This document shows, one piece after another, positions 86 through 62,390 of a stretch of DNA of 64,000 bases (position 1 is the first letter of the stretch; each line of letters opens with the position of its first letter). This DNA comes from a bacterium (lineage in GTDB: Bacteria > Verrucomicrobiota > Lentisphaeria > Victivallales > GWF2-38-69), in the NCBI GenBank assembly GCA_021781705.1, contig JAJXWI010000003.1, positions 2,919 through 66,918 on the forward strand, given 5' to 3'. Under the pieces are notes generated by a model, which was not told the DNA's origin, made no database searches, and saw only the letters and a program-made list of their open reading frames with translations. The translations under genes and the position numbers were made by a program.

Positions 86-150
86 GGTAGGGATACCTCG
101 CCGAGGGCGCCGCGTTTTCTTATGGTAGGGCAATTCCTTTAGCCATGCGT
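86..150 (+). repeat. Two REP-like modules (GGTAGGG + CCTCGCCGAGG palindrome; GGTAGGG + caattcctttagcc)
   Basis: GGTAGGG at 86-92 and 124-130, each followed by sequence matching modules seen again at 52445-52470, 60030-60050 and 62249-62268. Confidence 0.6.
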
Positions 151-4323: not shown

Positions 4324-5283
4324 CTAAAGCATTTGAGAAATCATTTTTTCGAGTTTAATTGTATCTACGGTAAAACTTCTAATTCCTTCTGCAAGCTTTT
4401 CGGTTGCCATAGCGTCTTCGTTGTGCATCCACCGGAATGTTTTCTCATCAAGAGTTATCTTATTCATGACTTCTGCCATTGTTTCAGACTTATTCAGCTT
4501 TCGATCCATTTTTTCAGTTTCAGCAGATTTAAGCTCATTCAAAAGCTCGGGAGATATTGTAAGATAATCGCATCCGGCTAATTCTGTAATCTGATCTACA
4601 TTTCTGAAACTCGCACCCATCACTATAGTTTTATAGCCATTTTTCTTGTAGTAATTATAAATTTTCTTGACAGATAGCACTCCGGGATCCATGGAAGGCG
4701 CATACTCTTCCATAACACTATTTTTCTTGTACCAGTCCAATATCCTACCTACATATGGAGAAATCAGCGTTACCCCGGCGTCCGCGCATTGAATAGCCTG
4801 AGCAAAACTAAAAAGCAGTGTCAAATTGCAATGTATATTCTCTTTTTCCAGCTGCCTTGCGGCCCTGATGCCTTCCCATGTCGCAGCTATTTTTATAAGA
4901 ATTCTTTCTCTGTTTATCCCAAGATCCCTGTACATGTCAATAATTTCACGCGCTTTTTTCACGGTGCTTTCCGTGTCAAATGACAATCTCGCATCAACCT
5001 CGCTGGAAACTCGACCCGGAATAATCTTAAGGATCTCTCTCCCGAAATTAACGGCAACCCTAGTTATTGCACTGTCCAAAATTTTGTCTTTTCCCGAACA
5101 TTTGGATTTAGCGTAATCAACGGCACCTCTAATCAATCCTCGGTATACTTCATTTTGGGATGATTTTAAAATCAATGAAGGATTTGTGGTGGCATCGGTA
5201 GGAGCAAATTTCGCAATTGAGTTAATGTCTCCGGTGTCCGCAACAACAACAGTCATTTCTCTGAGAAAATCAAGCTTGTTCAT
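4324..5283 (-). CDS. tal: Transaldolase (TalB type)
   Basis: VVADTGD, TTNPSLIL and Schiff-base lysine context ILIKIAATWEGIRAARQLEKENI. Confidence 0.9.
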   Translation of the reverse strand: MNKLDFLREMTVVVADTGDINSIAKFAPTDATTNPSLILKSSQNEVYRGLIRGAVDYAKSKCSGKDKILDSAITRVAVNFGREILKIIPGRVSSEVDARLSFDTESTVKKAREIIDMYRDLGINRERILIKIAATWEGIRAARQLEKENIHCNLTLLFSFAQAIQCADAGVTLISPYVGRILDWYKKNSVMEEYAPSMDPGVLSVKKIYNYYKKNGYKTIVMGASFRNVDQITELAGCDYLTISPELLNELKSAETEKMDRKLNKSETMAEVMNKITLDEKTFRWMHNEDAMATEKLAEGIRSFTVDTIKLEKMISQML

Positions 5284-9893: not shown

Positions 9894-10292
9894 AGCGCTA
9901 CAACTCTTTTAAAAAGGCCCCATCCTGCCGGCAAGAAGACAAGGATCATCTCGATAGATACTTATATGCCAATGGATATTTTTTACACTAATGTGCTTTA
10001 AAGACCCAGAATTTTCTAACTCCCTTATGTCTTCGTATAGCGACGTTTTGAAGGCTGCCATACTCGAGAAATGCAGTTCTTTTCAGGGCGCGGCACGGTC
10101 CCGGTCCAGACCAGTATTGGCAGTGCATGAAAGATGTGAGAGCATCTATGGAGACTCCTTGGAGTAAAGGGTTGCGAGACGCATTTGTCGATAGGTATTC
10201 AAAGCGCCCCGCCCCCTGCACCTACAACTCGTATAATTATCCGCTATACGACAGGCCATAGTCGATTAATAGCAACACCGCGGGCAGATGCT
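9894..10292. ncRNA. Candidate structured RNA, unclassified (GC-rich island between convergent genes)
   Basis: Markedly more GC-rich than flanks; long-range complementarity CGTATAGCG (~10035) / CGCTATACG (~10243) and CTGCCATACT / AGTATTGGCAG; only poor ORFs. Confidence 0.25.
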
Positions 10293-49202: not shown

Positions 49203-49307
49203 CCCGGTTTTTTGAACACCCAAATGGCTTTTAATCATTAGGTGGGTTATACTAATGTCGCGTCGGGAATAAATGCTGAATGGAGTGTTGATAGTTCAGT
49301 AAAGCAT

Positions 49308-49410
49308 GTGGAGGGGCGAGCTTCGTCTCGTCCGCCCTTATTTTCGGCTCCGACGAAGCGGAGCCCTCCATCTCACTCACCAGTATTCGACATGTGCACA
49401 TAGTTTGGGG
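49308..49410 (+). repeat. Repeat module I (GTGGAGGG-bounded double hairpin + tail), copy 1
   Basis: Outer stem TGGAGGG/CCCTCCA enclosing GCGAG-CTTCGT-CTCGT and GGCTCCG-ACGAAG-CGGAGCC; a second copy lies at 61967-62078. Confidence 0.75.
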
Positions 49411-49433
49411 CAATATTTACATGGAGTGTTGGT

Positions 49434-50837
49434 ATGGACATAAAAGATATTAATTCTGTTTCTTCTGATTTGAAACAGGCTTTTAGCAAAGCGCTTCAGG
49501 CTATTGATAAAAATAATCTTGAATATGCTACTGAAATTCTAAAAGGGCTGGTGTTGAAGGAGCCTGGATTTATTCAAGCCCGGGAAAAGCTTAGAGTCGT
49601 AGAAAAAATGCGAGCCAAAACAGGCTTTTTTGGGAGCGCGATATCCTCCATAAAAGTAAAAAAGACAGTAAAGCTTGCGCAATTAGACATTCTTAGGGGA
49701 AAATATTCCGATGCTATGGTTAAAGCAGAAGAAGCTCTTGCCATTCATGTAAGAGATTTGGGCGCTTTAAAAGTACTGGCGGAAGCCGGCACGGCTCTTT
49801 CGGCGTTGTTTATAGCTGTTGAAGCATATGAACTGGCTTACAGCTTTTATCCCGATAATCCTGAAGTGATAAAACTTTTGTCAGAAGTTTACAGGCTGGC
49901 AGGAAGAGGAAAAGATGAGCTGAAGATGCGGCAAAAACTTGTTAGCATGTTTCCTGACGATCTTGAGTATAAGCAAGAATCCAGATCTGCCGGAGCACTG
50001 GCTACCATGGAAAAAGAAAAATTTAATAATCTGGACTCCTCGTACAGGGATAAGTTAAAGGACGCTGAAGAATCGGGGCTTTTAGAGCAGCAGGAGAAGA
50101 TCGTTCACAATATTGATGATGTCAGAGGGCTGGTTAATAGTCTGGAAGAACAATTGAAGGAATCTCCAAATTCTGTTTATATTCTCAGAGATCTGGCCTG
50201 GGCTTACTATAAGGCTGAATGTTACGAAAAGGCCTTAACCTATTTTCGAAAACTGCACACTTTGCAGGAACATTTCGATTTAAGTGCGGACAAGGCGCTT
50301 GAGGGTTCAGAATTAGCTATTTTGAATAGAAAGATAGACTCTTTGGCTAAAGATGCTGAAAGCTGTGGGGAAAAGGAAAAGCAAGCAGGGCTGATGCAGG
50401 AATTGGAAAGCCTGACAAGTAATAAATACAATATCCGAAAAGGATATGCAGAAAACAGAGTTAAGCTTTACCCTAATGATTTACAACTACATTATGATCT
50501 CGGAATTATATACTGGGTAGGGAAAGATATAGAACGTGCAATAGAAGAGTTTCAGATGGCTCGGAAACATCCCAAATGGAGCTTCTCCTCTCAAGTTCAT
50601 CTAGGTTTGTGTTTTTATCAAAAAGGACATTATGAACTAGCCAAGGATCAGCTGAGTAACGCTATAAAAATGGAAAGTTCGAATGACAAGGAACTGCTAG
50701 ATGCCGTTTATTTCTTAGGTCTTTCTTTTGAAAAATTAAAAGATGTTCCAAATGCAAAAGAATGCTTTAAGAAAGTTTATTCTGTAAATGTCAGATACAG
50801 AGATATATCTGAAAAAATAAAGCTATACTACAATTGA
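49434..50837 (+). CDS. TPR-repeat protein
   Basis: 467 aa with repeated A/Y/L-spaced helical-hairpin pattern (AWAYYKAECYEKALTYF, LGLCFYQKGHYELA, etc.). Confidence 0.7.
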   Translation: MDIKDINSVSSDLKQAFSKALQAIDKNNLEYATEILKGLVLKEPGFIQAREKLRVVEKMRAKTGFFGSAISSIKVKKTVKLAQLDILRGKYSDAMVKAEEALAIHVRDLGALKVLAEAGTALSALFIAVEAYELAYSFYPDNPEVIKLLSEVYRLAGRGKDELKMRQKLVSMFPDDLEYKQESRSAGALATMEKEKFNNLDSSYRDKLKDAEESGLLEQQEKIVHNIDDVRGLVNSLEEQLKESPNSVYILRDLAWAYYKAECYEKALTYFRKLHTLQEHFDLSADKALEGSELAILNRKIDSLAKDAESCGEKEKQAGLMQELESLTSNKYNIRKGYAENRVKLYPNDLQLHYDLGIIYWVGKDIERAIEEFQMARKHPKWSFSSQVHLGLCFYQKGHYELAKDQLSNAIKMESSNDKELLDAVYFLGLSFEKLKDVPNAKECFKKVYSVNVRYRDISEKIKLYYN

Positions 50838-50940
50838 TGTTTATTTATAAATCATAAGGAAAAATCAAAAAAAATAAATTCCGGGCTTGCCTTTAATTTT
50901 CTACTTGTGTACTTTATAATCCATTTTGCTTCTAATATGT

Positions 50941-51017
50941 GGTTCCGTAGCTCAGTTGGTTAGAGCAGATGACTCATAATCATCGGGTCGCTGGTTCGAG
51001 TCCAGCCGGGACCACCA
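50941..51017 (+). tRNA. tRNA with CAU anticodon (elongator Met or lysidine-modified Ile2), CCA encoded
   Basis: 77 nt cloverleaf; acceptor GGTTCCG/CGGGACC, anticodon arm GATGA-CTCATAA-TCATC. The T arm GCTGG-TTCGAGT-CCAGC resembles E. coli ileX as I recall it, so Ile2 is possible. Confidence 0.9.
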
Positions 51018-51031
51018 TTTTCTTTTCACGA

Positions 51032-51129
51032 ACAGATCGCCGAGCTGTCCGTTTGGTGTGTGCGCATACTTCACTAAACCCTTAACCTCCATCTCATTCA
51101 CCAGGATTTAATATTTGCGCATAGTTTGA
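51032..51129 (+). repeat. Partial repeat modules F and I-tail downstream of the tRNA
   Basis: ACAGATCGCCGAGCTGTCC (module F hairpin without the GGTAGGG core) and ...cctccatctcattcaccag...gcgcatagtttg, which matches the 49365-49408 tail. Confidence 0.6.
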
Positions 51130-51223
51130 TGAATGTTTTCTATATTTTTGGTGTTATAGCTTTATATTAAACCAGAAAGTTGAGTATTTAATAATCAAAC
51201 TTATAGAGCTGGAGAATGTTCTT

Positions 51224-52366
51224 ATGCGAAAAGATTTTTTGCCTTTCTGCAGGCCGTCCATAAATAAAGAAGATGTAAAAGCCGTTGACGAAGTTTTACT
51301 TTCCGGCTGGATTACCACCGGCAAATGGAATAACGAATTCGAAAAGCAACTATGCGAATATACTGGAGCAAAATATGGCGTAGCGTTAACTTCTGCTACT
51401 GCCGGAATGCATATACTCCTCAAGGCACTGAATATCGGCCCCGGCGACGAAGTTATCACACCTTCTCTGACTTGGGTTTCTACAATAAATTTAATTACTC
51501 TTTCAGGCGCAACCCCGGTATTTCCAGACATTGATCGCGACACATTAATGGTGACCCCCGATTCAATAAAAAAGTGCATCACAGCTAAAACAAAACTTAT
51601 CATACCTGTTCACTATGCCGGTGCGCCAGTCGACCTTGACGCAATCAATTCTCTAGCTAAACAGCATGGTATTACTATTGTAGAAGATGCTGCTCACGCC
51701 ATTGGCACTTTTTATAAAGGCAAACATATCGGGCATGAAAATACGGCAATTTATTCTTTCCACCCAATAAAGAACATCACTACCGGCGAAGGCGGCATGA
51801 TTACGACAAATGATCCGGAATTAATAGAAAAGCTCAGACGCCTAAAATTTCACGGGCTTGGTGTTGATGCTTTTGACCGCCAGCAGCAAGGCCGTTCTCC
51901 TCAGGCTCAGGTAGTTGATCCCGGATACAAATATAATCTTACGGATATTGCCGCAGTTCTTGGAGTTAAACAGCTTTCAAGGATTGGAGAAATAAACAAA
52001 AAACGTACTGAAATAGCCATGATGTACAGGCAAAAGCTGCAGGGAATTGAAGGGATTCTTCCGCTTAAAGATCCAAATTATGAATTTACCCATGCATGGA
52101 ATCTCTTCATTGTCAGGGTGACGACTGATAAGATAACCAGAAATGCTTTCATGGAAGAGCTCAAAAAGCTTAATATTGGAACAGGCCTTCATTTCCTAGC
52201 GGCGCATGTTCAGAAATATTACCGAGAAACTATGAATATTGCCCCAGGAGTATTAGCAAATACAGAATGGAACTCTGACAGGATGTGCTCAATTCCATTA
52301 TTCCCTGACATGACAGAGCAGGATGTTGATGATGTTGTGTCAGCTATCAGGAAAGTTGTTGGGTGA
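51224..52366 (+). CDS. arnB: UDP-4-amino-4-deoxy-L-arabinose--oxoglutarate aminotransferase-like (DegT/ArnB family)
   Basis: Near-colinear with E. coli ArnB as remembered: FLPFCRPS, SGWITTG, TSATAGMH, GDEVITPSLTWVST, IPVHYAGAP, FSFHPIKNIT, LKFHGLGVDA, GYKYNLTDI, NTEWNSDR. Confidence 0.85.
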   Translation: MRKDFLPFCRPSINKEDVKAVDEVLLSGWITTGKWNNEFEKQLCEYTGAKYGVALTSATAGMHILLKALNIGPGDEVITPSLTWVSTINLITLSGATPVFPDIDRDTLMVTPDSIKKCITAKTKLIIPVHYAGAPVDLDAINSLAKQHGITIVEDAAHAIGTFYKGKHIGHENTAIYSFHPIKNITTGEGGMITTNDPELIEKLRRLKFHGLGVDAFDRQQQGRSPQAQVVDPGYKYNLTDIAAVLGVKQLSRIGEINKKRTEIAMMYRQKLQGIEGILPLKDPNYEFTHAWNLFIVRVTTDKITRNAFMEELKKLNIGTGLHFLAAHVQKYYRETMNIAPGVLANTEWNSDRMCSIPLFPDMTEQDVDDVVSAIRKVVG

Positions 52367-52385
52367 TGGGGGATGGATCGTAGAT

Positions 52386-52441
52386 CATAGTTCATAGTTG
52401 GTAGTTGGTAGTTGGTAGTTGGTAGTTGGTGGTTGGTGGAG
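52386..52441 (+). repeat. 7-bp tandem tract (CATAGTT x2, GGTAGTT x4, GGTGGTT, GGTGGAG)
   Basis: Eight consecutive heptamers starting 20 nt after the arnB stop. Confidence 0.85.
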
Positions 52442-52444
52442 GAT

Positions 52445-52470
52445 GGTAGGGACGGCTCGCCGAGCCGTCC
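52445..52470 (+). repeat. REP-like unit: GGTAGGG core + GGACGGCTCG/CGAGCCGTCC palindrome
   Basis: 10-bp arms read directly; same architecture as module F copies. Confidence 0.8.
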
Positions 52471-52500
52471 GGTAAAAGAAGATAGATAAATATTCACTAA

Positions 52501-52771
52501 TATATTTATGTTCTAGCCACTGGCGTGAGCCCGTGGAAAACTTTATCACATAAAAATCAAGCCCTCATGCAGGGAGTGGCGACACTTTGAGTTTTTTCTC
52601 CAACACATTTCCCCGCAAAATACTAAAAAAAGAAATCAGTCGTTTTGAGGTTGCTAACATCTTTATCTGAATTCTTACCCGCCAACTGGTTCACTGGTTC
52701 ACCAGTATAAACGGACAGCTCGGCGATCTGTCCCTACCAAGACTCACTACGATCCACCATCTACGACCCAC
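52501..52771 (+). repeat. ~270-bp composite intergenic repeat, copy a
   Basis: Module order A (ctagCCACTGGCGTGAGCCCGTGG), B (CCCTCATGCAGGG...), C, D, E, F (GGACAGCTCGGCGATCTGTCCCTACC), heptamer tail; ends at the fbaB stop codon. Confidence 0.85.
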
Positions 52772-53824
52772 TCACGCAATCGTGATGGTATTATCGAGAT
52801 ATACATCCTGGACTGCCTGGATAAGCTTAATTCCCTCTTCCATCGGCTTCTGGAATGCTTTTCTTCCCATTATTAGCCCTGTGCCGCCGGCGCGTTTGTT
52901 TATAACTGCTGTTTTAACGGCTTCCTTGAGGTCATTGGTTCCCGATGCTCCGCCGGAGTTTATAAGTCCTATTCTGCCCATGTAGCAGTTAGCCACCTGG
53001 TATCTGGTCAAGTCTATTGGATGGGTTGTAGTTAATTTTGAGTAAACCAGGGAGCTGGTTTTTCCGAATTTTACAGCATTGTACCCGCCATTGTTTGTCG
53101 GGAGTTTTTGTTTTATTATATCGGCCTTAATGGTAACGCCCAGATGGTTAGCCTGTCCTGTTAGGTCCGCTGATTCTTCGTAATTAACTTCGCCCACCTT
53201 GAAAGCATTATTTCTCAAGTAGCACCATAAAACTGTGAACATTCCCAGGGCGTGGGCTTTTTCAAATGCTTTTGAAACTTCTTCTATCTGCCGCCTCGAC
53301 TCAGGAGAACCGAAGTAGATGGTTGCGCCTATGCCTGCTGCGCCCATGTTGAAGGCATCTTCTATCGAGGCGAAGAGCTTCTGGTCGTAGGTATTCGGGT
53401 ACGAAAGAATCTCATTATGATTTATTTTTAACAAAAAAGGGATTTTATGCGCGTATTTTCTAGCGACTGATGCCAAAACGCCTAGTGTCGAAGCTACGGC
53501 GTTGCATTCGGCCTCAATAGCCAGCTTTACTATGTTTTCAGGATCAAAATAGATTGGATTTGGTGCAAATGAGGCTCCTCCCGAGTGTTCTATCCCTTGG
53601 TCTACAGGAAGTATCGAGAGGTATCCCGTTCCTGCAAGACGTCCGGTATTATACAATAATTGAAGGTTCCTAAGAACATTTATAGGCCTGTCTGACGGAG
53701 CAAAAACTTTATCCACAAAATCTCCCGACGGCAGATGAAGCATTTCTTTTGGAATAGCGGTGCACTTGTGGGTTAATAGAAATTCTTTTTCTTCTCCCAG
53801 AACATCGCAGACATTGATTCCCAT
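52772..53824 (-). CDS. fbaB: Class I fructose-bisphosphate aldolase (FbaB/DhnA type)
   Basis: Long colinear match to E. coli FbaB as remembered ([40 protein letters not shown]...). Confidence 0.9.
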
Positions 53825-54105
53825 ATTTCCTCCTGTTTTTACGGGTTGGATTTTTTGAAAGGCCAGAGATTTTAAAATCTATAGTCCGATTATAGCTTGA
53901 GAAGTATAAAATTTTCATCAGCTGTGCGAATTTTTTTTTAAATACTCAAAGTTTAGGGTTTCAAACAGCTTGATTTTCTCACACGGAGGCACAACGGTAC
54001 AAAGATTTCTCTCTGTGGTGAAAATGATCTTCCCAGCACCTTTGAGTGCCGGTATTCTTTTTAAGCATTTATGTCGCAACTCCTTTTAGGAGAGCTTGGT
54101 TATGG

Positions 54106-54422
54106 CTCTTTTTTCTATTCCACGGGCTCACGCCCATGGCTAACATGTCTATTATATTTATATTCTAGCCACGGGCGTGAGCCCGTGGAAAACTTTATCA
54201 CATAAAGATCAAGCCCTCATGCAGGGAGTGGCGACACTTTTAGTTTTAGCAAGGTTGTCGGAACCGTAAAATACTAAAAAAGAAATCAGCCGTTTTGAGG
54301 GTGGTAACATCTTTATCTGAATTCTTACTCGCCAACTGGTTCACTGGTTAGCCTGTTCACCAACATTATCGGACAGCTCGGCGATCTGTCCCTACCCAGA
54401 CCAACCACGATTCATGAACCAA
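54106..54422 (+). repeat. Composite intergenic repeat, copy b, with an extra inverted A hairpin at its left end
   Basis: 54153-54422 aligns with copy a. 54106-54253 is nearly identical to the reverse complement of 60322-60471. Ends at the stop of the 54423 gene. Confidence 0.85.
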
Positions 54423-55265
54423 CTACTCCTGCCCCCTATTTCCAATGTATACCATTTTTGTGAACGTTACTTGACGGCTTGTTCTGAATGCCTGAGCGGC
54501 TGGAGTTTCATTTGCCGGATAAACATTGGCACCTTGGAGTTTTATCCATTTCTGCCATGAGTCTTTATCCATTACTGTCAGATCAACAGTAACTACAGAA
54601 GGAAAAGGAGTTGGTGAAGGAGCAGTAGTACTTATATCAGGATTAATAATCGTACTAGTATCAGTACCTGTAGCACAAGTAAAAGAGAGGTCTATGACAT
54701 AAGGAATAAGTTTCTGGTAAGCTTCTGACGAGTTAGAATTTGCAGTAAAGGCCGATGTATCAGCTGCGAATCCCACTGTAAGATTATTAAGGTAGTTCCA
54801 TTTTGGATTATCACTGCCATCTGAATTCTTGTCGCCTGTAACGCTTCTTCTGACCCATCCCTCATTTGCGTCATGATTAGTCGCATAATAGAGTTGATAT
54901 TTTACTTCACAAAGAGTGGACGCACACTCAGAATTAGGAGGGATTGGTGTATCTGCTACAAATGCCAGCAATTCGTTCCTATACTCACCCCAGCCAGCCG
55001 GCCGGCCGCCATTCCAGTGCCAAAAAGGAGCAGAACCTTCACCATGATAAGCGCTTTCGAGATCCCTTGAAATCAGGTCTAGAGCTATACGTGCATCTTC
55101 AAAGGTTGATCTTTTTGCATCCGTTGTAGTCCAAGTGTTTTGCGCAGTTGAAAAAAAATGAAATGCTACAAGGATCAGGACTGAAAAAACAGCCATAACA
55201 GCCAGCAATTCAACTAAGGAAAAATACTTCCGTTTTGTCTTATCTTTCATAAATCTGGCTTTCAT
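54423..55265 (-). CDS. GspJ/PulJ-like minor pseudopilin
   Basis: GGAG 7 nt before the Met at 55265; MKARFMKDKTKRKY-FSLVELLAVMAVFSVLILVAF prepilin-type hydrophobic N-terminus; ARIALDLISRDLESA resembles GspJ. Confidence 0.65.
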   Translation of the reverse strand: MKARFMKDKTKRKYFSLVELLAVMAVFSVLILVAFHFFSTAQNTWTTTDAKRSTFEDARIALDLISRDLESAYHGEGSAPFWHWNGGRPAGWGEYRNELLAFVADTPIPPNSECASTLCEVKYQLYYATNHDANEGWVRRSVTGDKNSDGSDNPKWNYLNNLTVGFAADTSAFTANSNSSEAYQKLIPYVIDLSFTCATGTDTSTIINPDISTTAPSPTPFPSVVTVDLTVMDKDSWQKWIKLQGANVYPANETPAAQAFRTSRQVTFTKMVYIGNRGQE

Positions 55266-55331
55266 TAGAAACTCCAATAACTACCCAGTTTCCCGGCAAG
55301 TCCTTCAGCAAAGGACGTCATTAAGTCTATC

Positions 55332-55356
55332 AGACAGCTCGGCGATCTGTCCCTAC
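55332..55356 (-). repeat. Solo REP-like module F inside the pseudopilin operon
   Basis: GACAGCTCGGCGATCTGTCCCTACC; on the gene-sense (minus) strand this is GGTAGGG + hairpin, between the 55522 stop and the 55265 start. Confidence 0.75.
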
Positions 55357-55521
55357 CTAATTGTTTTCCCAAGGTTTTCTTATAGCAGGGCGTCCTTCTT
55401 TTACCACTTATTTCACTAAATACTTATCTCCGCTCGTAACTAGAATATACACCGAAGGTTAAAGAAACAAAGGAGCTCCTTACAAAACAGAAACAACTTT
55501 CCCAATTTTTATAAATACTAA

Positions 55522-58176
55522 CTAGTCAGACAGATAAATAAATCTCTTAACGTAGAACTTGCTGGGCGAGGTTGTGAAGTCACGTTTAATAATTGCAAGA
55601 ATCTTCTGAGACGCCAATATCTCATCGGCGTTGGGATCATAAACACTTGTATCTGTAGGAGTTGAAAGAGATTTTCCATATCTATCAAAACGAGTTCCTC
55701 CAATATCTCTAATAGCCTCCCCAACAGCTATTACAGTGTATTCTTCAGGAGACTCAGCCTTTGTAAGATTTATGAATTTTCCAATGAATTCTTCTTTCGT
55801 AGCATCCGTAGTACCCGTTGTCAACAAGTTCGCAACCGTCGTGTTGTTTAAGGTGTTAGCTCTTGTAGTAAAAGCCGTTCCTGTTCCCTGACTGCCGTTA
55901 ACAGCTATTATATTATTCGCAATAGTATTTGCAGTTGTCACACTCGTAGCAGTCCCTCCAGAGCCTGGATTGTCCTTGCTGCTGCCTATTTTTATATTAT
56001 CGAACAATGTTCTCAGAACGGATTGATTATCAGAATTTAGATTAATTTTTCCAAGGGTCGTAGTCCTTGATGTCATTTTTACCTGATCGAGGATGTTAGC
56101 ATCTCCATCATCATAATTATTTCCTCCTGCTCCCACATTAACGCCTTCAGTTGTGTTATATTTCTTTAGATTTAAAGTTTGGAATGCTTTAGCTCTGTGA
56201 ATTAATCCTAACTCCCATGGAGACTTCATGGGCGCATTCCGAATATACGCAGTAGATATTAGATAAGGATATGTTGCTGAAGGCTCGGGATCTGTAGAGC
56301 CTCCTGGATTTGGTGCAAAAACTGTGTTATTAGCAGTCAAACTTGGAGGAGGAGTAGAAGAAGTAGTAGTATAGGTCTTGAGACTCCAGTCGCTTGTAAG
56401 GGTATTCTGTCTTGGGTCATTTGTTTCATAAACGAAAATGAGCGTACCGGTAGTAGGAGTAGAAGAAGTACTTGATGCATTGGAAACTACCGGATACCAT
56501 GTAGTATTATTGTCAAATATGAAAGAATAATCATATAAATCTGCAGTCCCGGCGCCAAACAGCCTCACTTTTAGACTGTTTATTCTTGCCATTATTCTGG
56601 TATCAGCATAAGAACTGCTGGTAGTTGTAGTAAGGGTACGCACGGCATCTCTTTGAAGCGTATAGTTGATTGTAGGAAGAATAGACAGTGTCGTGTTTGA
56701 ATACCCATTACTAGTTGGTGCTGCTGAAGTTGTGAAAGGTGAAGACATGATTTCAAAGCTTTCAGAATCAAGTGTAGTTATTAAGGTTGGGGAACTGAAC
56801 TTTCCCCATTGAAGTTCAATGTCTTCCATGTCTACTTTAGCCTGTATTGACTTAGAAACTCCATACATATCTACGACTTGAACTGTATCTGCAATATTTT
56901 CAGTAGTAAATGTGTATATATAACGTCTACTTCCTCCCGAAAGTCCATTGGTTGCAACAACAATTTTTCCTGTAATAGACACCATAACACGATTTATATA
57001 GGGTACTTTTTCCAGTCCTATATAAGTGGGATCTGTATTAGTCCCGCTGTCAGTAGTAGGAATATCATTAGAATCGCAGTAATCTATTAAGTTGGCTATA
57101 ATCTGGCTTTGCGCAACACCCTTGTTAGCAAAACCACCTGAAGACTTCCAGCCGTTATCCCCAAGCCATGGTAAATAATTTGATTCACCAGATAAGGCAG
57201 TCATAAACTTTATGCCAGAAGCATTTCCTATTGAATTAACAGTTAATGTATCCCAGTCTGTTCTGGTAAGATTAAATCTATGATAGAATTCATTTGTATC
57301 TCTAATATTATCGTCGCTTACATCTACCCAAAAAGCCTCTGGATCTTCAAGCGCGTTTACATAAAATACTTTTCTAAAATAATCCCGTGTAGTATCATTA
57401 TTCGCTGCAATGCCAAGCGCATTAAAAATCTTTTCATAGTCTTTCCAGTTTCCTGCATTTCCAATAGGAACAAGCCCCGGCGGACTGCAGGTTGCAGCAC
57501 TCATTTTTTGAGTATATATAGCTGAAAATGCTGTTGTGTCAGCTTGCAACGAGGCCAGACTTAACTCAGTTAAATCCCTCCCTGGCCTGCCTACTACATA
57601 ATTGCCTGCAGTATCGACCGAAGTATTCCCCCCGCCATAGTTGAATTCAGACGGTGGCGTTATTCCCCACGAATCAGCATTAACACCTGAGTCTATCACT
57701 GCCCATGGATCAATCTTCCCTTTATCTGGAACAACAACATAAGCTATTCGTCCAATGATTGTTCCAGTGTCTGCCTGATTTGTCCTAAAATAAATCCACG
57801 AAACATTGGTAGTATCACTTGCTATACACCCGCTAGGATAATCAACAGGTAAAGAATAGTATGTGATTCCATTAATAACCGTGGTAAGTTTTGAAGCAAG
57901 AGATTCCGTGTCAGCATTGGTCCATGATGTCATATCGCTGCGATGACTCACTATATTACTGAAGCTTTCCTGTGGATTAGTGCTCGCACTCTTCATTAAT
58001 GCCACAGCCCTATTAAAAGCCGTTTGTGCAGCAACTCTTGCAGAAACTATATTCTGGTAGTTTGACGATGCTTTTTTTTCGACTATTGAAGTTGTCACAT
58101 AGGCAATACCCAAACAAAGAAGCAACGCCGTTATGCCTATTGCTAGAATTGTCGCTATACCATTTTCATTTTTCAT
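55522..58176 (-). CDS. Giant GspK/PilX-like minor pseudopilin (~885 aa)
   Basis: Start moved to the ATG at 58176 (MKNENGIATILAIGITALLLCLGIAYV). GspK-like landmarks ANLIDYCDSNDIP and MKSPWELGLIH. The upstream extension in the track ORF is encoded by a terminator hairpin. Confidence 0.6.
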   Translation of the reverse strand: MKNENGIATILAIGITALLLCLGIAYVTTSIVEKKASSNYQNIVSARVAAQTAFNRAVALMKSASTNPQESFSNIVSHRSDMTSWTNADTESLASKLTTVINGITYYSLPVDYPSGCIASDTTNVSWIYFRTNQADTGTIIGRIAYVVVPDKGKIDPWAVIDSGVNADSWGITPPSEFNYGGGNTSVDTAGNYVVGRPGRDLTELSLASLQADTTAFSAIYTQKMSAATCSPPGLVPIGNAGNWKDYEKIFNALGIAANNDTTRDYFRKVFYVNALEDPEAFWVDVSDDNIRDTNEFYHRFNLTRTDWDTLTVNSIGNASGIKFMTALSGESNYLPWLGDNGWKSSGGFANKGVAQSQIIANLIDYCDSNDIPTTDSGTNTDPTYIGLEKVPYINRVMVSITGKIVVATNGLSGGSRRYIYTFTTENIADTVQVVDMYGVSKSIQAKVDMEDIELQWGKFSSPTLITTLDSESFEIMSSPFTTSAAPTSNGYSNTTLSILPTINYTLQRDAVRTLTTTTSSSYADTRIMARINSLKVRLFGAGTADLYDYSFIFDNNTTWYPVVSNASSTSSTPTTGTLIFVYETNDPRQNTLTSDWSLKTYTTTSSTPPPSLTANNTVFAPNPGGSTDPEPSATYPYLISTAYIRNAPMKSPWELGLIHRAKAFQTLNLKKYNTTEGVNVGAGGNNYDDGDANILDQVKMTSRTTTLGKINLNSDNQSVLRTLFDNIKIGSSKDNPGSGGTATSVTTANTIANNIIAVNGSQGTGTAFTTRANTLNNTTVANLLTTGTTDATKEEFIGKFINLTKAESPEEYTVIAVGEAIRDIGGTRFDRYGKSLSTPTDTSVYDPNADEILASQKILAIIKRDFTTSPSKFYVKRFIYLSD

Positions 58177-58198
58177 GGGGCATTTGCCATATTTTGAA

Positions 58199-58230
58199 AA
58201 AATTAAAAAGGCAGGAATTCTTTCCTGCCC
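58199..58230 (-). terminator. Intrinsic terminator between the first and second pseudopilin genes
   Basis: Minus strand GGCAGGAA-AGAA-TTCCTGCC then TTTTTAATTTTTT, starting ~17 nt after the 58247 stop. Confidence 0.65.
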
Positions 58231-58246
58231 CAAAAACCGTTTCCTC

Positions 58247-59836
58247 TCAAGAGGCACCTATACTGTTCAGGTCATAAACTTCAAAATAGTACCTCAGTTT
58301 ATTCCTCTTGCTGTAATCTGTCTGATGCAATGGCCAGCTAATTTCTACATTAACACCTACGCCAACAGTTTTCTCGCTTGTACTAGTTGTTGTTGCACCA
58401 GAAGGAGGCGTAACCGGAGTTCCACCATCAACCGTTACATTTCCATTAGATCCTTCAAGCATTTGAATGTACCAATTCCCGATCCCTCCAGAGGAACCGG
58501 CCTTCCATAGTTTAATTTTCAAAGAACCATTTGACGCGGCATTCATAACTACATTTTTTCCATCAATCAATACATTTTCGCCATTCAGTGCAAGATTAGC
58601 TTCATCTCCACTTTTAGTTCTCAAAACTAAGCTATTTGCAGAATAAGTTCCGGCAGTACTATCACTATTCTTTTTTAAGTCATCTCTTGTAAGATGTGTT
58701 CCATCGGACTTTGTCATATCAAAAGCATAATCACTATTAGTAGGATTTATACCTATTCCGCTTTCGCTTGTTTTAAGAGCACTAGTATCTGTTGGTGCAA
58801 GTGTGGCAACGAGAACAAGATCCTGCATATCATATGCCGAACTTTTTTTATCTTTTGTATAAAGTTCAAAGCCATAAATAACCTGATTATCCGCAAGTTT
58901 GATTTTTCCATCATTAGTTACGTAGTCCTTAACTACTGTTGAAAGGGGTAACTGCGTTCCATACGCATCTATAGTAGGAACAGGATCTCCATTTTTAAGA
59001 ACCCACACCTGATTGCTATCTGTTGATAAAACAGTTCCAGGATTATATTTGCCTTTCTTGTCTGTGTCATACTGGTCAGACTTAGCGCTGACTACAATAC
59101 TTGTTCCAACTGGAGCATTTTCTCCTGAAGGAGTCCAATTATACGAAGACTGAGTAAGAGGACCTGGAGGATTTGCAATAAATGCGGTCCCGTCGGGTTT
59201 TGTAAGAGGAGTTCCGTCAATTTTTGTAGCAGTTACACTGACAGTAACGTTGGGATTGGCTGGCTGCATATATACACCAAGACACTTAAAAGACACATTA
59301 ACCGGCGCAGTATTAGATACGGTTCCGCTTGAAATATTAAACTTAGGCGTTTCAGGAACCGGCGGCGGTTTATAAGCAATCACTTTTTCGTCTTGGCTAT
59401 ACGGTTTGCCCTGCCATATCAGTACTTGAGCGGAATAGTCCTGATCGCTTCTTGATGAAGTGCCTTTGGCTACTACGTAAACACCTTTGTTAGAGGTTGA
59501 ATACATATTATCTCTTCCAGAAATCTTATTTTCCAAGGCAGGCATCGCACTTACAATAAAACTAGGCGTATCAGAACCGTTTAGAAAAATCTTATCTCTT
59601 GAGGGTAATCCAATAATTCCTTTATCATCCCATAAGGCAGAATCTTTTGCCAGACTGGAAATATACGCATAAACATCATCGGCAAAAATCGCTGAATAAT
59701 TTTGCCCCATAGAATCTTTAGCTTGCTTCATTCCCACTGGGAAAAGCGTAATCACCGTGACCGCTCCGACAGCAAGTATACCAATTGCTAACGCGACCTC
59801 CACCATTGAGAACCATTTTTTCATAATCGTTTTCAT
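58247..59836 (-). CDS. Large pseudopilin-like protein (529 aa) with prepilin-type N-terminus
   Basis: GGGAGGTG RBS; MKTIMKKW-FSMVEVALAIGILAVGAVTVITLFPVG; Thr/Ser/Asn/Gly-rich beta-type remainder. Confidence 0.65.
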   Translation of the reverse strand: MKTIMKKWFSMVEVALAIGILAVGAVTVITLFPVGMKQAKDSMGQNYSAIFADDVYAYISSLAKDSALWDDKGIIGLPSRDKIFLNGSDTPSFIVSAMPALENKISGRDNMYSTSNKGVYVVAKGTSSRSDQDYSAQVLIWQGKPYSQDEKVIAYKPPPVPETPKFNISSGTVSNTAPVNVSFKCLGVYMQPANPNVTVSVTATKIDGTPLTKPDGTAFIANPPGPLTQSSYNWTPSGENAPVGTSIVVSAKSDQYDTDKKGKYNPGTVLSTDSNQVWVLKNGDPVPTIDAYGTQLPLSTVVKDYVTNDGKIKLADNQVIYGFELYTKDKKSSAYDMQDLVLVATLAPTDTSALKTSESGIGINPTNSDYAFDMTKSDGTHLTRDDLKKNSDSTAGTYSANSLVLRTKSGDEANLALNGENVLIDGKNVVMNAASNGSLKIKLWKAGSSGGIGNWYIQMLEGSNGNVTVDGGTPVTPPSGATTTSTSEKTVGVGVNVEISWPLHQTDYSKRNKLRYYFEVYDLNSIGAS

Positions 59837-60012
59837 TTCACACCTCCCGACCCCCTGTAGGTCATTTATAAATTAACAGTTTACGGAACCTCATTTTCGC
59901 CTCTTTTCTTCTTCTTTCCTACAATCTAATTATAACCATATCAATGAATAAATAAACAATGGGAAAGCGATTATGGGACAAAAATAACGATAAATATTTA
60001 ACTTCCTAATAA

Positions 60013-60050
60013 GTAGTTCGTGGTGGCATGGCTAAAGGAATCGCCCTACC
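60013..60050 (-). repeat. Heptamer-like tract + module H (ggctaaaggaatcgCCCTACC)
   Basis: Reverse complement GGTAGGGCGATTCCTTTAGCC matches 62249-62268 and 124-144. Confidence 0.65.
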
Positions 60051-60183
60051 AATAAGGCATAAATATTCACTACCATTTTTGATTTAAAATAATTATATAA
60101 CTTGTTTACATACAATAGATTGACTTGAATTGGCGCCATGTTATTGTTGTTTTTACGTAAACTATGACCAATACTCACACAGA

Positions 60184-60238
60184 GAAGGGAAGAGATTCAT
60201 TCTTTGTGTCGTTGTGCTTCCGTGTGAGAAAATTAAGC
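60184..60238. repeat. Module X long hairpin (CTCACACAGAGAA...TTCTTTGTGT...GTGTGAG)
   Basis: Self-complementary; its reverse complement matches 53973-54024 (ttctcacacgga.gcacaacg..acaaaga). Confidence 0.6.
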
Positions 60239-60321
60239 GCCGCATTTAACACCCTTCACTGAACTCTTACCGCTTCGACGGGCGGGGCTGAACGTATGCG
60301 GACGCAACGGTCTTGCTAAAA

Positions 60322-60471
60322 CTAAAAGTGTCGCCGCTCCCTGCATGGGGGCTTGATCTTTATGTGATAAAGTTTTCCACGGGCTCACGCCCGTGGCTAG
60401 AATATAAATATAATAGACACGTTAGCCATGGGCGTGAGCCCGTGGAATAGAAAAAAGAGACATTTTTATTA
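60322..60471 (-). repeat. Partial composite repeat (modules B + double A hairpin), inverted relative to copy b
   Basis: Reverse complement is almost base-for-base identical to 54106-54253. Confidence 0.85.
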
Positions 60472-60512
60472 AATGTCTTGTTTATTTACATGCAAAATAT
60501 ATTTTTATCTAT

Positions 60513-60554
60513 CCCAAAACCCAAAACCCAAAACCCAAAACTTAAAACTTAACA
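60513..60554 (+). repeat. 7-bp tandem repeat (CCCAAAA)x4 followed by CTTAAAA and CTTAACA
   Basis: Read directly; ends 10 nt before the 60565 ATG. Confidence 0.9.
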
Positions 60555-60564
60555 CTAGAGACCC

Positions 60565-61884
60565 ATGAGCATCTTCAAATCTTATGATATTCGGGGGATA
60601 TATCCCTCACAGATAAACGAGGAAATCGTTGAAAAAATAGGCAGAGCTTTTGCTACTTACTTGAGTGCGAAGGAAATCGTTATCGGATACGATATGCGTA
60701 CGCATTCGAAGTCAATTTTCAAAGCTCTGGCAAAGGGTATCGTCTCAACCGGTGCGAATGTTATAAATATCGGGTTATGTTCAACGCCCATGATATATTT
60801 TGCAAACGGCACGCTTAAACCCGATGGGAGCATAATGATTACTGCTTCGCATAATACCGGAGAATGGAACGGCTTGAAGCTTTGTCGCGACAAAGCTATC
60901 CCAATAAGCGGAAAAACAGGCATTAAAGAGATAGAAAAAATTGTTTTTTCCGGGGTATGGAAAACTTCGAAAACAAAAGGTGTAGTTAAAGAACATGATA
61001 TCAGCGAAGCTTATGCGAAACATATAAGGAGTTTTTCAAAATTAACAAGAAAGCTCAAGGTAGTTGTTGACTTTGGGAACGCTGTTGGATCCATAGAGAT
61101 TAAAGGAATCAGAGATCTATTTGAAATAATTCCATTATACGAAGAACTTGATGGTACCTTTCCGAATCACGAAGCCAATCCTCTCGTTACTGAAACACTG
61201 CATGAATTGTGTCGGAAAGTAAAGGAAACAGGGGCTGATTTCGGGGCAGGTTTTGACGGGGACGCTGACCGTTGCGGGTTTGTAGACGACAATGGCGAAA
61301 TTATCCCGATGGACCTTTTTACTGCCCTTATAGCGGAAGATATTCTCAAGGGCGGGCCGCAAACTATTTTGTACGACCTTAGAAGCAGCAGGGTGGTTAA
61401 GGAATCTATTGAAGCTAATGGAGGTAGGGCCGTGATGTGCAGAGTGGGGCACTCATTTATAAAAGCCCAAATGAGAGAAACGAATGCCGCATTTGCCGGA
61501 GAACTTTCGGGCCATTACTATTTTAGAGAGAACTTTACGGCGGAGTCACAGGCTCTCGCTTTCCTTAAATTTGCCAATTTTATATGCGAAACTGGAAAAA
61601 CTGCATCAGAATTGCTTAGGCCATTAAGAAAATATTATGCTACCGGTGAAATAAACTCTGAAGTCAAGGATGTAAAAAGTGTTCTGAATAAAATCAGGCA
61701 AAAATATTCTGACGGAAAAATAGTGGAGCTTGATGGACTTACCGTGGAATACGATGATTGGTGGTTTAATGTGCGTAGTTCAAATACTGAACCACTGCTG
61801 AGGCTCAATCTTGAAGCATCAACAAAAGCCGACATGGAACAGAAACGCAATGAACTGCTTGCGGTGATAAGGGAAGAGGGGTGA
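60565..61884 (+). CDS. Phosphomannomutase/phosphoglucomutase
   Basis: SYDIRG start, phosphoserine loop TASHNTGEWNG, metal loop GFDGDADR, GELSGH sugar-binding loop. Confidence 0.9.
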   Translation: MSIFKSYDIRGIYPSQINEEIVEKIGRAFATYLSAKEIVIGYDMRTHSKSIFKALAKGIVSTGANVINIGLCSTPMIYFANGTLKPDGSIMITASHNTGEWNGLKLCRDKAIPISGKTGIKEIEKIVFSGVWKTSKTKGVVKEHDISEAYAKHIRSFSKLTRKLKVVVDFGNAVGSIEIKGIRDLFEIIPLYEELDGTFPNHEANPLVTETLHELCRKVKETGADFGAGFDGDADRCGFVDDNGEIIPMDLFTALIAEDILKGGPQTILYDLRSSRVVKESIEANGGRAVMCRVGHSFIKAQMRETNAAFAGELSGHYYFRENFTAESQALAFLKFANFICETGKTASELLRPLRKYYATGEINSEVKDVKSVLNKIRQKYSDGKIVELDGLTVEYDDWWFNVRSSNTEPLLRLNLEASTKADMEQKRNELLAVIREEG

Positions 61885-61966
61885 GTAGTTGATGGTTGAT
61901 AATTGATGGCGGGCTGTACGAGTTAACTAAACCATGTGCCAGCAGGGACATAGGTCGATCCATCGA

Positions 61967-62078
61967 GTGGAGGGACGAGCTTCGTCTCGTCCGCCTTTCT
62001 TTTCGGCCCCGACGACATTTCTAACACGCATGGTAAAAGCGGAACCCTCCACTTAAGTCATAATTTGCGTATGGTTTG
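61967..62078 (+). repeat. Repeat module I, copy 2 (second hairpin disrupted by extra sequence)
   Basis: GTGGAGGGACGAGCTTCGTCTCGTCCGCC...GGAACCCTCCAC...gcgtatggtttg aligns with 49308-49410. Confidence 0.75.
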
Positions 62079-62369
62079 TAGTTCGTGGCGGCTTGGGTAG
62101 GGACAGATCGCCGAGCTGTCCGATAATATTGGTGCACCAGTGCACCAGTTGGCGGGTAAGAATTCAGATAAAGATGTTACCAACCTCAAAACGGCTGATT
62201 TCTTTTTTTAGTATTTTGCGGTTCGTGGTTCATGGATCGTGGATCGTGGGTAGGGCGATTCCTTTAGCCTTGCTAAAACTCAAAGCGTCGCCACTCCCTG
62301 CATGAGGGCTTGATTTTTACGTTATAATCTTTTCCACGGGCTTACGCCCGTGGCTAGAATATAAATATA
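62079..62369 (-). repeat. Composite intergenic repeat, copy c (reverse orientation) with a nested ~48-bp insertion
   Basis: Equals the reverse complement of copy b. The exception is 62221-62268, where a heptamer tract + GGTAGGG + module H replaces ~10 bp. Confidence 0.85.
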
Positions 62370-62390
62370 AACTTATTAGCTGGCTCTTTG

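Follow-up and report, generated by a model that had tools for sequence, protein, structure and literature searches.

A likely BIME-like mosaic of GTAG-type REPs and unrelated hairpin repeats in the intergenic spacers of a Lentisphaerota genome

Results

The repeat region and its genes

We analysed a 64,000-nt stretch of bacterial DNA (the window) in which a region of about 13 kb, positions 49203-62390, carries short repeated modules, designated F, H, I, A, B and X, in its intergenic spacers. We consider it likely that this region is a mosaic resembling bacterial interspersed mosaic elements (BIMEs), built from at least two unrelated families of hairpin repeats and linker DNA: repetitive extragenic palindromes (REPs) tagged with GTAG or GTGG (F, I and the head portions of H), a second family formed by module A and a larger unit termed half-1, and a composite unit that was copied locally. 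The genes between 49.2 and 62.4 kb are ordinary, and encode an acyltransferase/AMP-binding protein, a tetratricopeptide repeat (TPR) protein, tRNA-Met, a DegT aminotransferase, a class I aldolase, a phosphomannomutase, a subunit of a 2-oxoacid:ferredoxin oxidoreductase, and three proteins without a Pfam match, two of which have pseudopilin-like N-termini and weak matches to the 'Verru_Chthon cassette' families. The dnaN and recF genes lie just upstream. As judged from its sequence, the host is a low-GC, Victivallales-like member of the Lentisphaerota, in the Planctomycetota-Verrucomicrobiota-Chlamydiota (PVC) group, known from metagenome-assembled genomes (MAGs), with the window coming from GCA_027452705.1 and GCA_027457625.1; we placed it there because the best named relatives of its DnaN protein were from the Victivallales and Lentisphaerota (59-64% identity).

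To count occupied spacers, we took the longest non-overlapping open reading frames (ORFs) and the tRNAs as the gene set and considered spacers of at least 60 bp. Modules were present in seven of the eight spacers at 49.2-62.4 kb, compared with one of 20 at 1-49 kb, and every module copy in the window was intergenic. A preliminary description of this DNA had reported that nearly every intergenic spacer across the 13 kb was occupied, which this census bears out; nearly all of the module positions it gave were also recovered, with a recurrence far above chance. A search of the whole window with Rfam at the gathering threshold returned two tRNAs only.

GTAG- and GTGG-tagged repeats in the window

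The repeats that carry, or derive from, a GT[AG]G tag and lie outside the composite units are the following.

86..112, plus strand: degenerate F-type REP (GGTAGGGATACCTCGCCGAGGGCGCC); outside the range first described
123..148, plus strand: module H (GGTAGGGCAATTCCTTTAGCC), a GGTAGGG head without a hairpin; 96% identical to 60026-60051
49308..49372, no strand assigned: module I, a GTGG-tagged REP doublet (GTGGAGGG-hairpin...hairpin-CCCTCCAT); -15.9 kcal/mol, z -2.4
51026..51051, plus strand: headless F hairpin, 13 nt after tRNA-Met; homology with congener L150 ends at its first base
51085..51140, plus strand: right arm and conserved tail of module I (CCTCCATCTCAYTCACCAG...GCRCATAGTTTG) with no left arm, from reading of the sequence (compare 49364-49415)
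52445..52470, plus strand: F-type REP equal to the cross-phylum consensus GGTAGGGACGGCTCGCCGAGCCGTCC; -10.8 kcal/mol, z -3.3
55328..55357, minus strand: solo F-type REP downstream of a gene of 911 aa, from self-comparison and the F count
60026..60051, minus strand: module H, from self-comparison
61967..62052, no strand assigned: second module I, with a 22-nt insertion in its second hairpin, from self-comparison and folding

The heptamer GGTAGGG occurred 11 times in the window, compared with 3.1 expected, a number that none of 100 shuffled sequences reached. Seven occurrences are intergenic and within the region (52445, 62096 and 62249 on the plus strand; 52732, 54390, 55351 and 60044 on the minus strand), and two are genic (50516 and 61423). 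The nine intergenic cores counted in the preliminary description are therefore obtained only when the heads at 86 and 124, outside its range, are added; its genic occurrence at about 50515 is the one at 50516, and that at 61423 had gone unmentioned. Module F hairpins numbered six in the window, against 0.01 expected: the five already reported, and a sixth, headless copy at 51030-51050. The GGTAGGG head followed by a hairpin of 9-10 bp is present in five of the six, and in the stem of the copy at 52450 an A>G change is compensated by T>C. All six lie 3' of a gene and in the sense orientation.

Module I was found at both positions where it had been placed, 49308 and 61967, the two copies being 92% identical over 49 nt. 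It is an inverted REP doublet, as in the paired elements known as REPINs, and its first hairpin, GGGCGAG-CTTCGT-CTCGTCC (GGGACGAG/CTCGTCC), is both F-like and terminator-like: in both copies (49314-49333 and 61973-61992) it was called as terminator-like, with a T-rich tail, downstream of plus-strand genes. Modules F and A were not called as intrinsic terminators, and no T run follows F. The two module H copies placed at 60030-60050 and 62249-62268 were located at 60026-60051 and 62249-62273, and a third at 123-148. Modules F and I are GTAG/GTGG-tagged REPs, with GT[AG]G directly 5' of a hairpin. Module H has kept the head and has no hairpin, and decay or truncation of such a unit is its most plausible origin. 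F, its variant at 52445, I, A and a doublet of A folded better than their shuffled sequences (z -2.1 to -10.8), whereas H, B and the X copy at 53964 did not.

The F hairpin in other phyla

We searched one genome per species with the core of F, from which the GGTA head had been removed. It matched more than 118 genome stretches, a lower bound, in the Verrucomicrobiota, Lentisphaerota, Kiritimatiellota, Planctomycetota and Acidobacteriota; among the matches listed, about 60 were labelled Verrucomicrobiota, 15 Lentisphaerota, 10 Kiritimatiellota (including the isolate Pontiella sulfatireligans), 10 Planctomycetota and 11 Acidobacteriota, with singletons besides. Although the query had no head, GGTA stood directly 5' of the hairpin in 92 of the 122 matches listed; CG stood directly 3' in 98 of them, and an inverted partner of the CCCTACC type lay at most 80 nt away in 69. 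The few headless matches look like chance or coding matches. The stems of inverted partners differ, while head, base and centre are the same, and the general unit can be written GGTAGG-G-N5-(N)TCG-S-CGA(N)-N5'-C-C, in which the GG...CC base and the TCG-S-CGA centre of the stem are fixed and its middle is free to covary.

Among 39 distinct variants, 94.3% of the cells were paired, in contrast to 71% in shuffles and 33-42% in slid controls; five of the nine pairs had changed on both sides, and none of 500 shuffles attained the observed score. The F hairpin is maintained by compensatory changes. The window's 52445 copy exactly matches the form most often found in the other phyla, and this 26-nt unit is the same base for base in genomes of at least five phyla whose G+C content ranges from 38% to over 70%. 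The element occurs in multiple copies in the Verrucomicrobiota, Lentisphaerota, Kiritimatiellota, Planctomycetota and Acidobacteriota. F had no match among viral contigs, a full-text literature search with its sequence returned unrelated papers only, and a metagenome scan with the window's ACAG variant found 13 loci, none of them from the host species.

GGTAGGG hairpins flank transposase genes in other genomes

Comparison of Escherichia coli TnpA-REP (query sequence checked as PDB 4ER8) with all ORFs of the retrieved loci, which we label with L-numbers, identified two ORFs resembling REP-associated tyrosine transposases (RAYTs), in L085 and L021, both directly abutted by F matches. The L085 gene is preceded by a cluster of REPs and followed by a REP doublet, and the L021 gene has identical REP doublets on both sides. 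The L085 protein scored 98.3 bits against NCBIfam NF047646, 'REP-associated tyrosine transposase' (cut-off 80 bits), passed Pfam Y1_Tnp, and had 613 detected homologues, many of them named RayT by JGI. Four further RAYT loci (L146, L147, L148 and L149) were chosen by protein homology alone and represent three distinct genes, those of L147 and L148 being the same. All four had GGTAGGG...CCCTACC hairpins on both sides, with differing bodies and a constant head, GGTAGGGAC. In total, six RAYT loci with five distinct genes, all in other genomes, were flanked by GGTAGGG hairpins. In three of these genes the TAG stop codon is itself the TAG of the downstream GGTAGGG head (L085 5643-5660, L147/L148 3569-3573 and L149 1805-1809).

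The preliminary description had identified the modules as REP elements and tied them to RAYTs. This largely holds for F and I, given their GT[AG]G tag, the adjacency of hairpins of this family to RAYT genes in other genomes and the covariation of the hairpin, but not for H, which has a head and no palindrome. A phmmer search with IS608 TnpA and a strict HUH/Y regular expression returned nothing. Read through in spurious ORFs, the REPs give peptides of the 'GRDGSPSRP' and 'GGLGETALP' types.

Module A, the composite units and other modules

The remaining features comprise module A, the composites and their flanking repeats.

36233..36296, plus strand: solo module A, a hairpin CCACGGGC-TCAC-GCCCGTGG with tail CTAGAACATAAATAT; outside the range first described
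52367..52444, plus strand: G/T-rich tract of 7-bp period ending in (GGTAGTT)x4 and abutting a REP head; three units instead of four in strain L003
52497..52771, plus strand: composite c1, with A tail and A hairpin (52517-52536), B (52562-52574), linker, half-2 and inverted F (52713-52738)
53968..54005, plus strand: module X, pairing with 60201-60238 (89%)
54102..54253, plus strand: left arm of a 152-nt inverted repeat, with an A doublet (54120-54139 and 54169-54188) and half-1; overlaps the start of c2 and is 97% complementary to 60312-60463
54149..54422, plus strand: composite c2, with inverted F (54371-54396) 27 nt after the stop codon of a pseudopilin-like gene
60177..60238, plus strand: module X', a hairpin with a 10-bp stem and an arm pairing with 53968-54005, from self-comparison and folding
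60312..60463, minus strand: right arm of the 152-nt inverted repeat, with half-1 and an A doublet (60377-60396 and 60426-60445)
60513..60556, plus strand: (CCCAAAA)x4 tract with degenerate units, immediately 5' of the phosphomannomutase start codon
61888..61909, plus strand: degenerate tract of 7-bp period immediately following the phosphomannomutase stop codon
62079..62373, minus strand: composite c3, inverted, with F (62096-62121), an insertion (62221-62268) and A (62334-62353)

Module A consists of an 8-bp stem with a 4-nt loop, followed by CTAG and an A/T-rich tail. It occurred seven times in the window, where none was expected: the six copies described before, and a seventh outside their range at 36246. 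The A doublet folded at -31.4 kcal/mol (z -10.8). Matches to microRNA families, obtained with Rfam at an E-value threshold, merely reflect this long doublet hairpin and were rejected. In a related strain, L127, the loop of one A copy (4796-4885) is enlarged by 41 inserted nt.

All tail-bearing copies of module A matched the Rfam motif Acido-Lenti-1 (RF01687) at 24.2-24.5 bits, below the gathering cut-off of 37 bits; the first hairpin and the CUA..UAU linker aligned, and the second hairpin was deleted. The motif was described by Weinberg et al. (2010) as multi-copy in Lentisphaera araneosa and Koribacter versatilis (PMC2864571), and its seed consists mostly of multi-copy elements of L. araneosa. 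Like module A, it has an 8-bp stem of the form CC-N6 / N6-GG, a U.AC loop closed by a G-C pair, a 3' CUA...UAU tail and a Lentisphaerota host; unlike module A, it has a second hairpin, in place of which module A has a small hairpin (B) on its 5' side. From these sequence features, module A appears to be a sub-threshold relative of Acido-Lenti-1, and a different hairpin from those of F and I. Many of the L. araneosa seed members stand in short regular arrays, for example with a spacing of 74 nt at NZ_ABCK01000001 416513-416780 and of 110-115 nt elsewhere (PMC2864571 supplement), and in that species the motif accordingly has the character of a clustered DNA repeat. Acido-Lenti-1 was absent from 20 REP-bearing loci of Lentisphaerota and Acidobacteriota (133 kb).

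We also noted a promoter-like sequence, TTTCCA-18-TAGAAT, across every tail-bearing module A, with the hairpin between the two hexamers. These sites include 60374-60403 and 62331-62360 on the plus strand and 54191-54162 on the minus strand, and two of the five, at the phosphomannomutase and aldolase genes, face a gene start.

Self-comparison agreed with the earlier report of a composite of about 270 bp in three copies, and added a partial copy at 60312-60463. Composites c1 and c2 share 85% identity over 254 nt, and c3 aligns in two blocks of 89-94%; the nested insertion proposed for c3 at 62221-62268 was evident in the alignment as 48 nt made up of heptamers and module H. The order within the composite is half-1, a variable junction, an unstructured half-2 of about 125 nt, and F. 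Half-1 (about 100 nt) comprises A, B and a linker of about 30 nt, and also stands alone at 60312-60416 and in strain L127. In the alignment the composite lacks terminal inverted repeats and target duplications, and its boundaries are not sharp but ragged and follow the modules; with neither defined ends nor target duplication, the composite was rejected as a miniature inverted-repeat transposable element or an IS200-IS605-derived palindrome-associated transposable element.

Of the other proposed hairpins, module B recurs but folds like its shuffles (z = -0.55), and module X, reported as a long hairpin at 53973 and 60184, forms an inverted pair of 89% identity of which only the copy at 60177 clearly folds. 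The 7-bp tandem tracts were all found (52376-52437, 60513-60556, 61888-61909 and 62223-62249), and elsewhere in the 64 kb we detected a single, trivial array of period 7. The modules thus do not form one repeat family, as had been supposed: module A is a CTAG-tailed hairpin close to Acido-Lenti-1, H, B and one X copy are unconvincing as hairpins, and half-2 is an unstructured linker.

Comparison with strains and congeners

Strains that are more than 99.9% identical differ across 21 kb by a handful of single-nucleotide polymorphisms and by one GGTAGTT unit, of which L003 has three and the window four, so that this tract is a variable-number tandem repeat. In the congeners L150-L153 (75 kb, about 80-84% nucleotide identity) we found no F, I or H and only one pair of A, although L152 has a recognisably related half-1, consisting of B plus A, in another spacer. 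The spacer between the acyltransferase and TPR genes, which holds the module I copy at 49308-49372, measures 231 bp in the window and 102 bp, without module I, in L151. The convergent spacer between the DegT and aldolase genes measures 405 bp here and, going by gene coordinates only, 137 bp in a closer relative whose aldolase is 94% identical. Orthologous spacers are accordingly 129-268 bp shorter in relatives.

Synteny with the congeners stops right after tRNA-Met (50941-51017; L150 13665-13741) or after the TPR gene (L151 15862 onward), and the segment from DegT to phosphomannomutase may for this reason be a variable region beside a tRNA gene. In L152 and L153 two pseudopilin-like genes, P and Q, are divergent from the aldolase gene; the window has the P..Q block in the reverse orientation with respect to aldolase. 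The inverted block (54254-60311, about 6.1 kb) contains the two pseudopilin-like genes and the additional 911-aa gene, and is bracketed by the 152-nt inverted repeat of half-1 and the A doublet, whose arms are 97% identical. We infer that recombination between these repeats caused the inversion; the opposite orientation of the block was found in none of nine contigs. In strain L127 (SRR13178630, 3781-6068), the oxidoreductase gene and half-1 of c3 are present at 99.3% identity and are followed by other DNA from the equivalent of window position 62275, a junction inside the composite, with a Zn-peptidase gene beyond the breakpoint instead of phosphomannomutase. Contigs of several assemblies end within the repeats.

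Discussion

How the mosaic may have arisen

If RAYTs act here as the work on E. coli TnpA-REP would suggest, the transposase would recognise a folded, single-stranded hairpin with its GTAG tag, and would nick and rejoin the DNA next to it. New copies of F and I could thereby be placed in trans in intergenic DNA, usually on the 3' side of genes, whereas the composite would most likely have been copied locally, by recombination or co-mobilisation, and copies once established could serve as substrates for recombination, as in the 6-kb inversion and the strain-specific breakpoint. We infer such RAYT-driven spread in the host genome from the association of the same hairpins with RAYT genes elsewhere.

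Several observations weigh against this interpretation. As the preliminary description had stated, the window has no RAYT gene: a profile of about 100 RAYT homologues and E. coli TnpA-REP detected none in the window, in L125-L132 or in the adjoining contig (about 12 kb), together about 76 kb of the genome, nor in the congener loci. The evidence for a RAYT link concerns hairpins of the F type and does not extend to A, B, X, H or half-2. The F copies of the window are mostly singlets and not the inverted doublets typical of REPINs, the sole pair being those at 52445 and 52738, 243 bp apart. No clean pair of empty and filled sites was found among the orthologous spacers, which differ throughout, so that insertion is not formally told from deletion or replacement. 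Some phylum labels of the F matches derive from MAGs, in which mis-binning is possible. Finally, local duplication accounts for the clustering of the modules no less well than transposition across the genome would.

This clustering also speaks for the view that the modules are immobile relics, whose abundance arose through segmental duplication, gene conversion and inversion in a variable region of surface-structure and sugar genes by tRNA-Met, with no transposase acting. The contrast between seven of eight and one of 20 occupied spacers, the 85-97% identity of composite copies within 10 kb of one another, the loss of congener synteny at the tRNA-Met and TPR genes, the repeat-bracketed inversion, the strain-specific breakpoint and the lack of a RAYT in the 76 kb are all in keeping with it. 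However, copies also occur 13-49 kb away (36233 and 86-148) and in L127 sequence outside the window, contigs of several assemblies end in repeats, as many genomic copies would predict, and solo F copies (55328 and 51026) lie outside any larger duplicated block; we judge this account rather unlikely. Somewhat less credible to us is that function resides in the composite or in half-1, which would then be an independent, non-autonomous mobile element or a multi-copy gene for a small RNA of the Acido-Lenti-1 type, with F merely attached at one end. All tail-bearing A copies share the loop and CUA tail of that motif and carry the promoter-like site, half-1 occurs alone here and in L127, L152 has its related unit in another spacer, and the 268 bp by which the DegT-aldolase spacer exceeds that of the closer relative is about one composite. 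Yet the Rfam scores are below the cut-off, the second hairpin of the motif is missing, and the REP-bearing loci of Lentisphaerota and Acidobacteriota lack it; the composite is without terminal inverted repeats, target duplication and sharp ends, half-2 and B fold no better than shuffles, and three of the five promoter-like sites do not face a gene start.

The hairpins might instead be kept mainly for a function at the RNA level in the host, as terminators or as stabilisers of the 3' ends of upstream mRNAs. The sense orientation of all six F copies 3' of genes and the terminator-like first hairpins of module I would be expected on this account, and REPs are mostly downstream of ORFs in the literature (PMC3733652). 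We find it improbable nevertheless, as F has no T run and is not called a terminator, three of the six F copies are inside duplicated composites, which makes the count of orientations not independent, and the adjacency to RAYT genes, the invariant GGTAGGG head and the doublets would be left unexplained. That the modules are fragments of decayed protein-coding genes is scarcely tenable: ORFs of 70 and 92 aa do overlap the repeats, but they have no Pfam match, the modules lie in both orientations, and conservation tracks base-pairing and not codons, and we rejected such an origin on these grounds.

Relation to known repeat systems and significance

To our knowledge, REPs and RAYTs have been studied almost entirely in Proteobacteria. 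Nunvar in 2010 and Bertels and Rainey in 2011 reportedly also dealt with GTAG REPs and REPtrons, in which REPs flank a RAYT gene. Di Nocera et al. (2013) described GTAG REPs and REPtrons in PVC bacteria, including the families GTAG-17, -19 and -20 in the verrucomicrobium Opitutus terrae and further families in Rhodopirellula baltica, noted GTGG variants and a location mostly downstream of ORFs, and termed the overlap of REPs with a RAYT stop codon '3' overlap' (PMC3733652). The present repeats share with those systems a short hairpin preceded by the GT[AG]G tag, an extragenic location that is mostly 3' of genes, the recurrence in several copies, the occurrence as singlets and inverted doublets, the compensatory variation of stems, and, in other PVC genomes, the flanking of RAYT genes by the same family with the stop codon inside the REP head. 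They differ in that the 2013 survey was without Lentisphaerota and the host is low-GC, that most copies here are singlets fused to unrelated modules, that an identical 26-nt unit occurs across several phyla, and that variable 7-bp tracts abut the heads. In essence, the main family of the mosaic consists of GTAG-type REPs of an already known kind, here in an uncultured Lentisphaerota lineage.

The term BIME-like, as used in the preliminary description, is apt for the architecture, in that REPs and other short motifs fill intergenic spacers in variable order and orientation as in enterobacterial BIMEs. It does not extend to membership, as the sequences are unrelated and there is no regular alternation here of two REP types (Y and Z) with defined linkers. 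A parallel to the composite may be drawn with the composite terminal inverted repeats of Pseudomonas putida and P. fluorescens RAYTs, which consist of degenerate GTAG-1 units and unrelated stem-loops (Di Nocera et al. 2013, PMC3733652). Both contain repeated units in which a GTAG REP has been joined to a stem-loop unrelated to it; here, however, the unit is about 270 bp, is seen in three copies only, and has no RAYT gene beside it in the window.

The region offers a well-resolved example of a REP mosaic in an uncultured member of the Lentisphaerota, within a single REP sequence family that spans the PVC phyla and the Acidobacteriota with an invariant GGTAGGG head. It also ties the orphan Rfam motif Acido-Lenti-1 to REP-like mosaics, and provides concrete cases of an inversion, a strain-specific breakpoint and assembly breaks that fall at repeats. 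In genome annotation, REP units should be masked, given the spurious 'GRDGSPSRP / RLGEPSLP' peptides and the fragmentation of MAG assemblies.

As for the identity of the 26-nt unit across phyla, we can offer only a doubtful suggestion: either one REPtron lineage has moved horizontally, or a shared host factor constrains the head, base and tip, and in this lineage the unit, fused to an Acido-Lenti-1-like hairpin, may have expanded recently and locally. Were this true, Acido-Lenti-1, listed in Rfam as an 'sRNA', would be a DNA repeat of the REP-like kind, and a pseudopilin gene cluster would be undergoing active remodelling by inversion through the mosaic.

Other observations

The 911-aa gene (55522-58257, minus strand) matches no family, is called as 884, 903 or 911 aa depending on the strain, and no equivalent of it lies between the homologues of P and Q in congeners L152 and L153. 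The spacer at 9894-10292 is 399 bp long and has a G+C content of 0.47, compared with 0.20-0.37 in the other spacers outside the repeat region; it contains neither a module nor an Rfam match. An ORF of 810 aa (37372-39804, minus strand) has an internal tandem duplication with a period of 1242 bp, in which 37372-37850 and 38614-39092 are 70-75% identical, with further duplicated blocks besides. Just to the left of window position 1, on contig L129 (11837-12627), lie two neighbouring ORF fragments of an IS256-family transposase (Pfam Transposase_mut), which adjoin the F-like and H copies at window positions 86-148.

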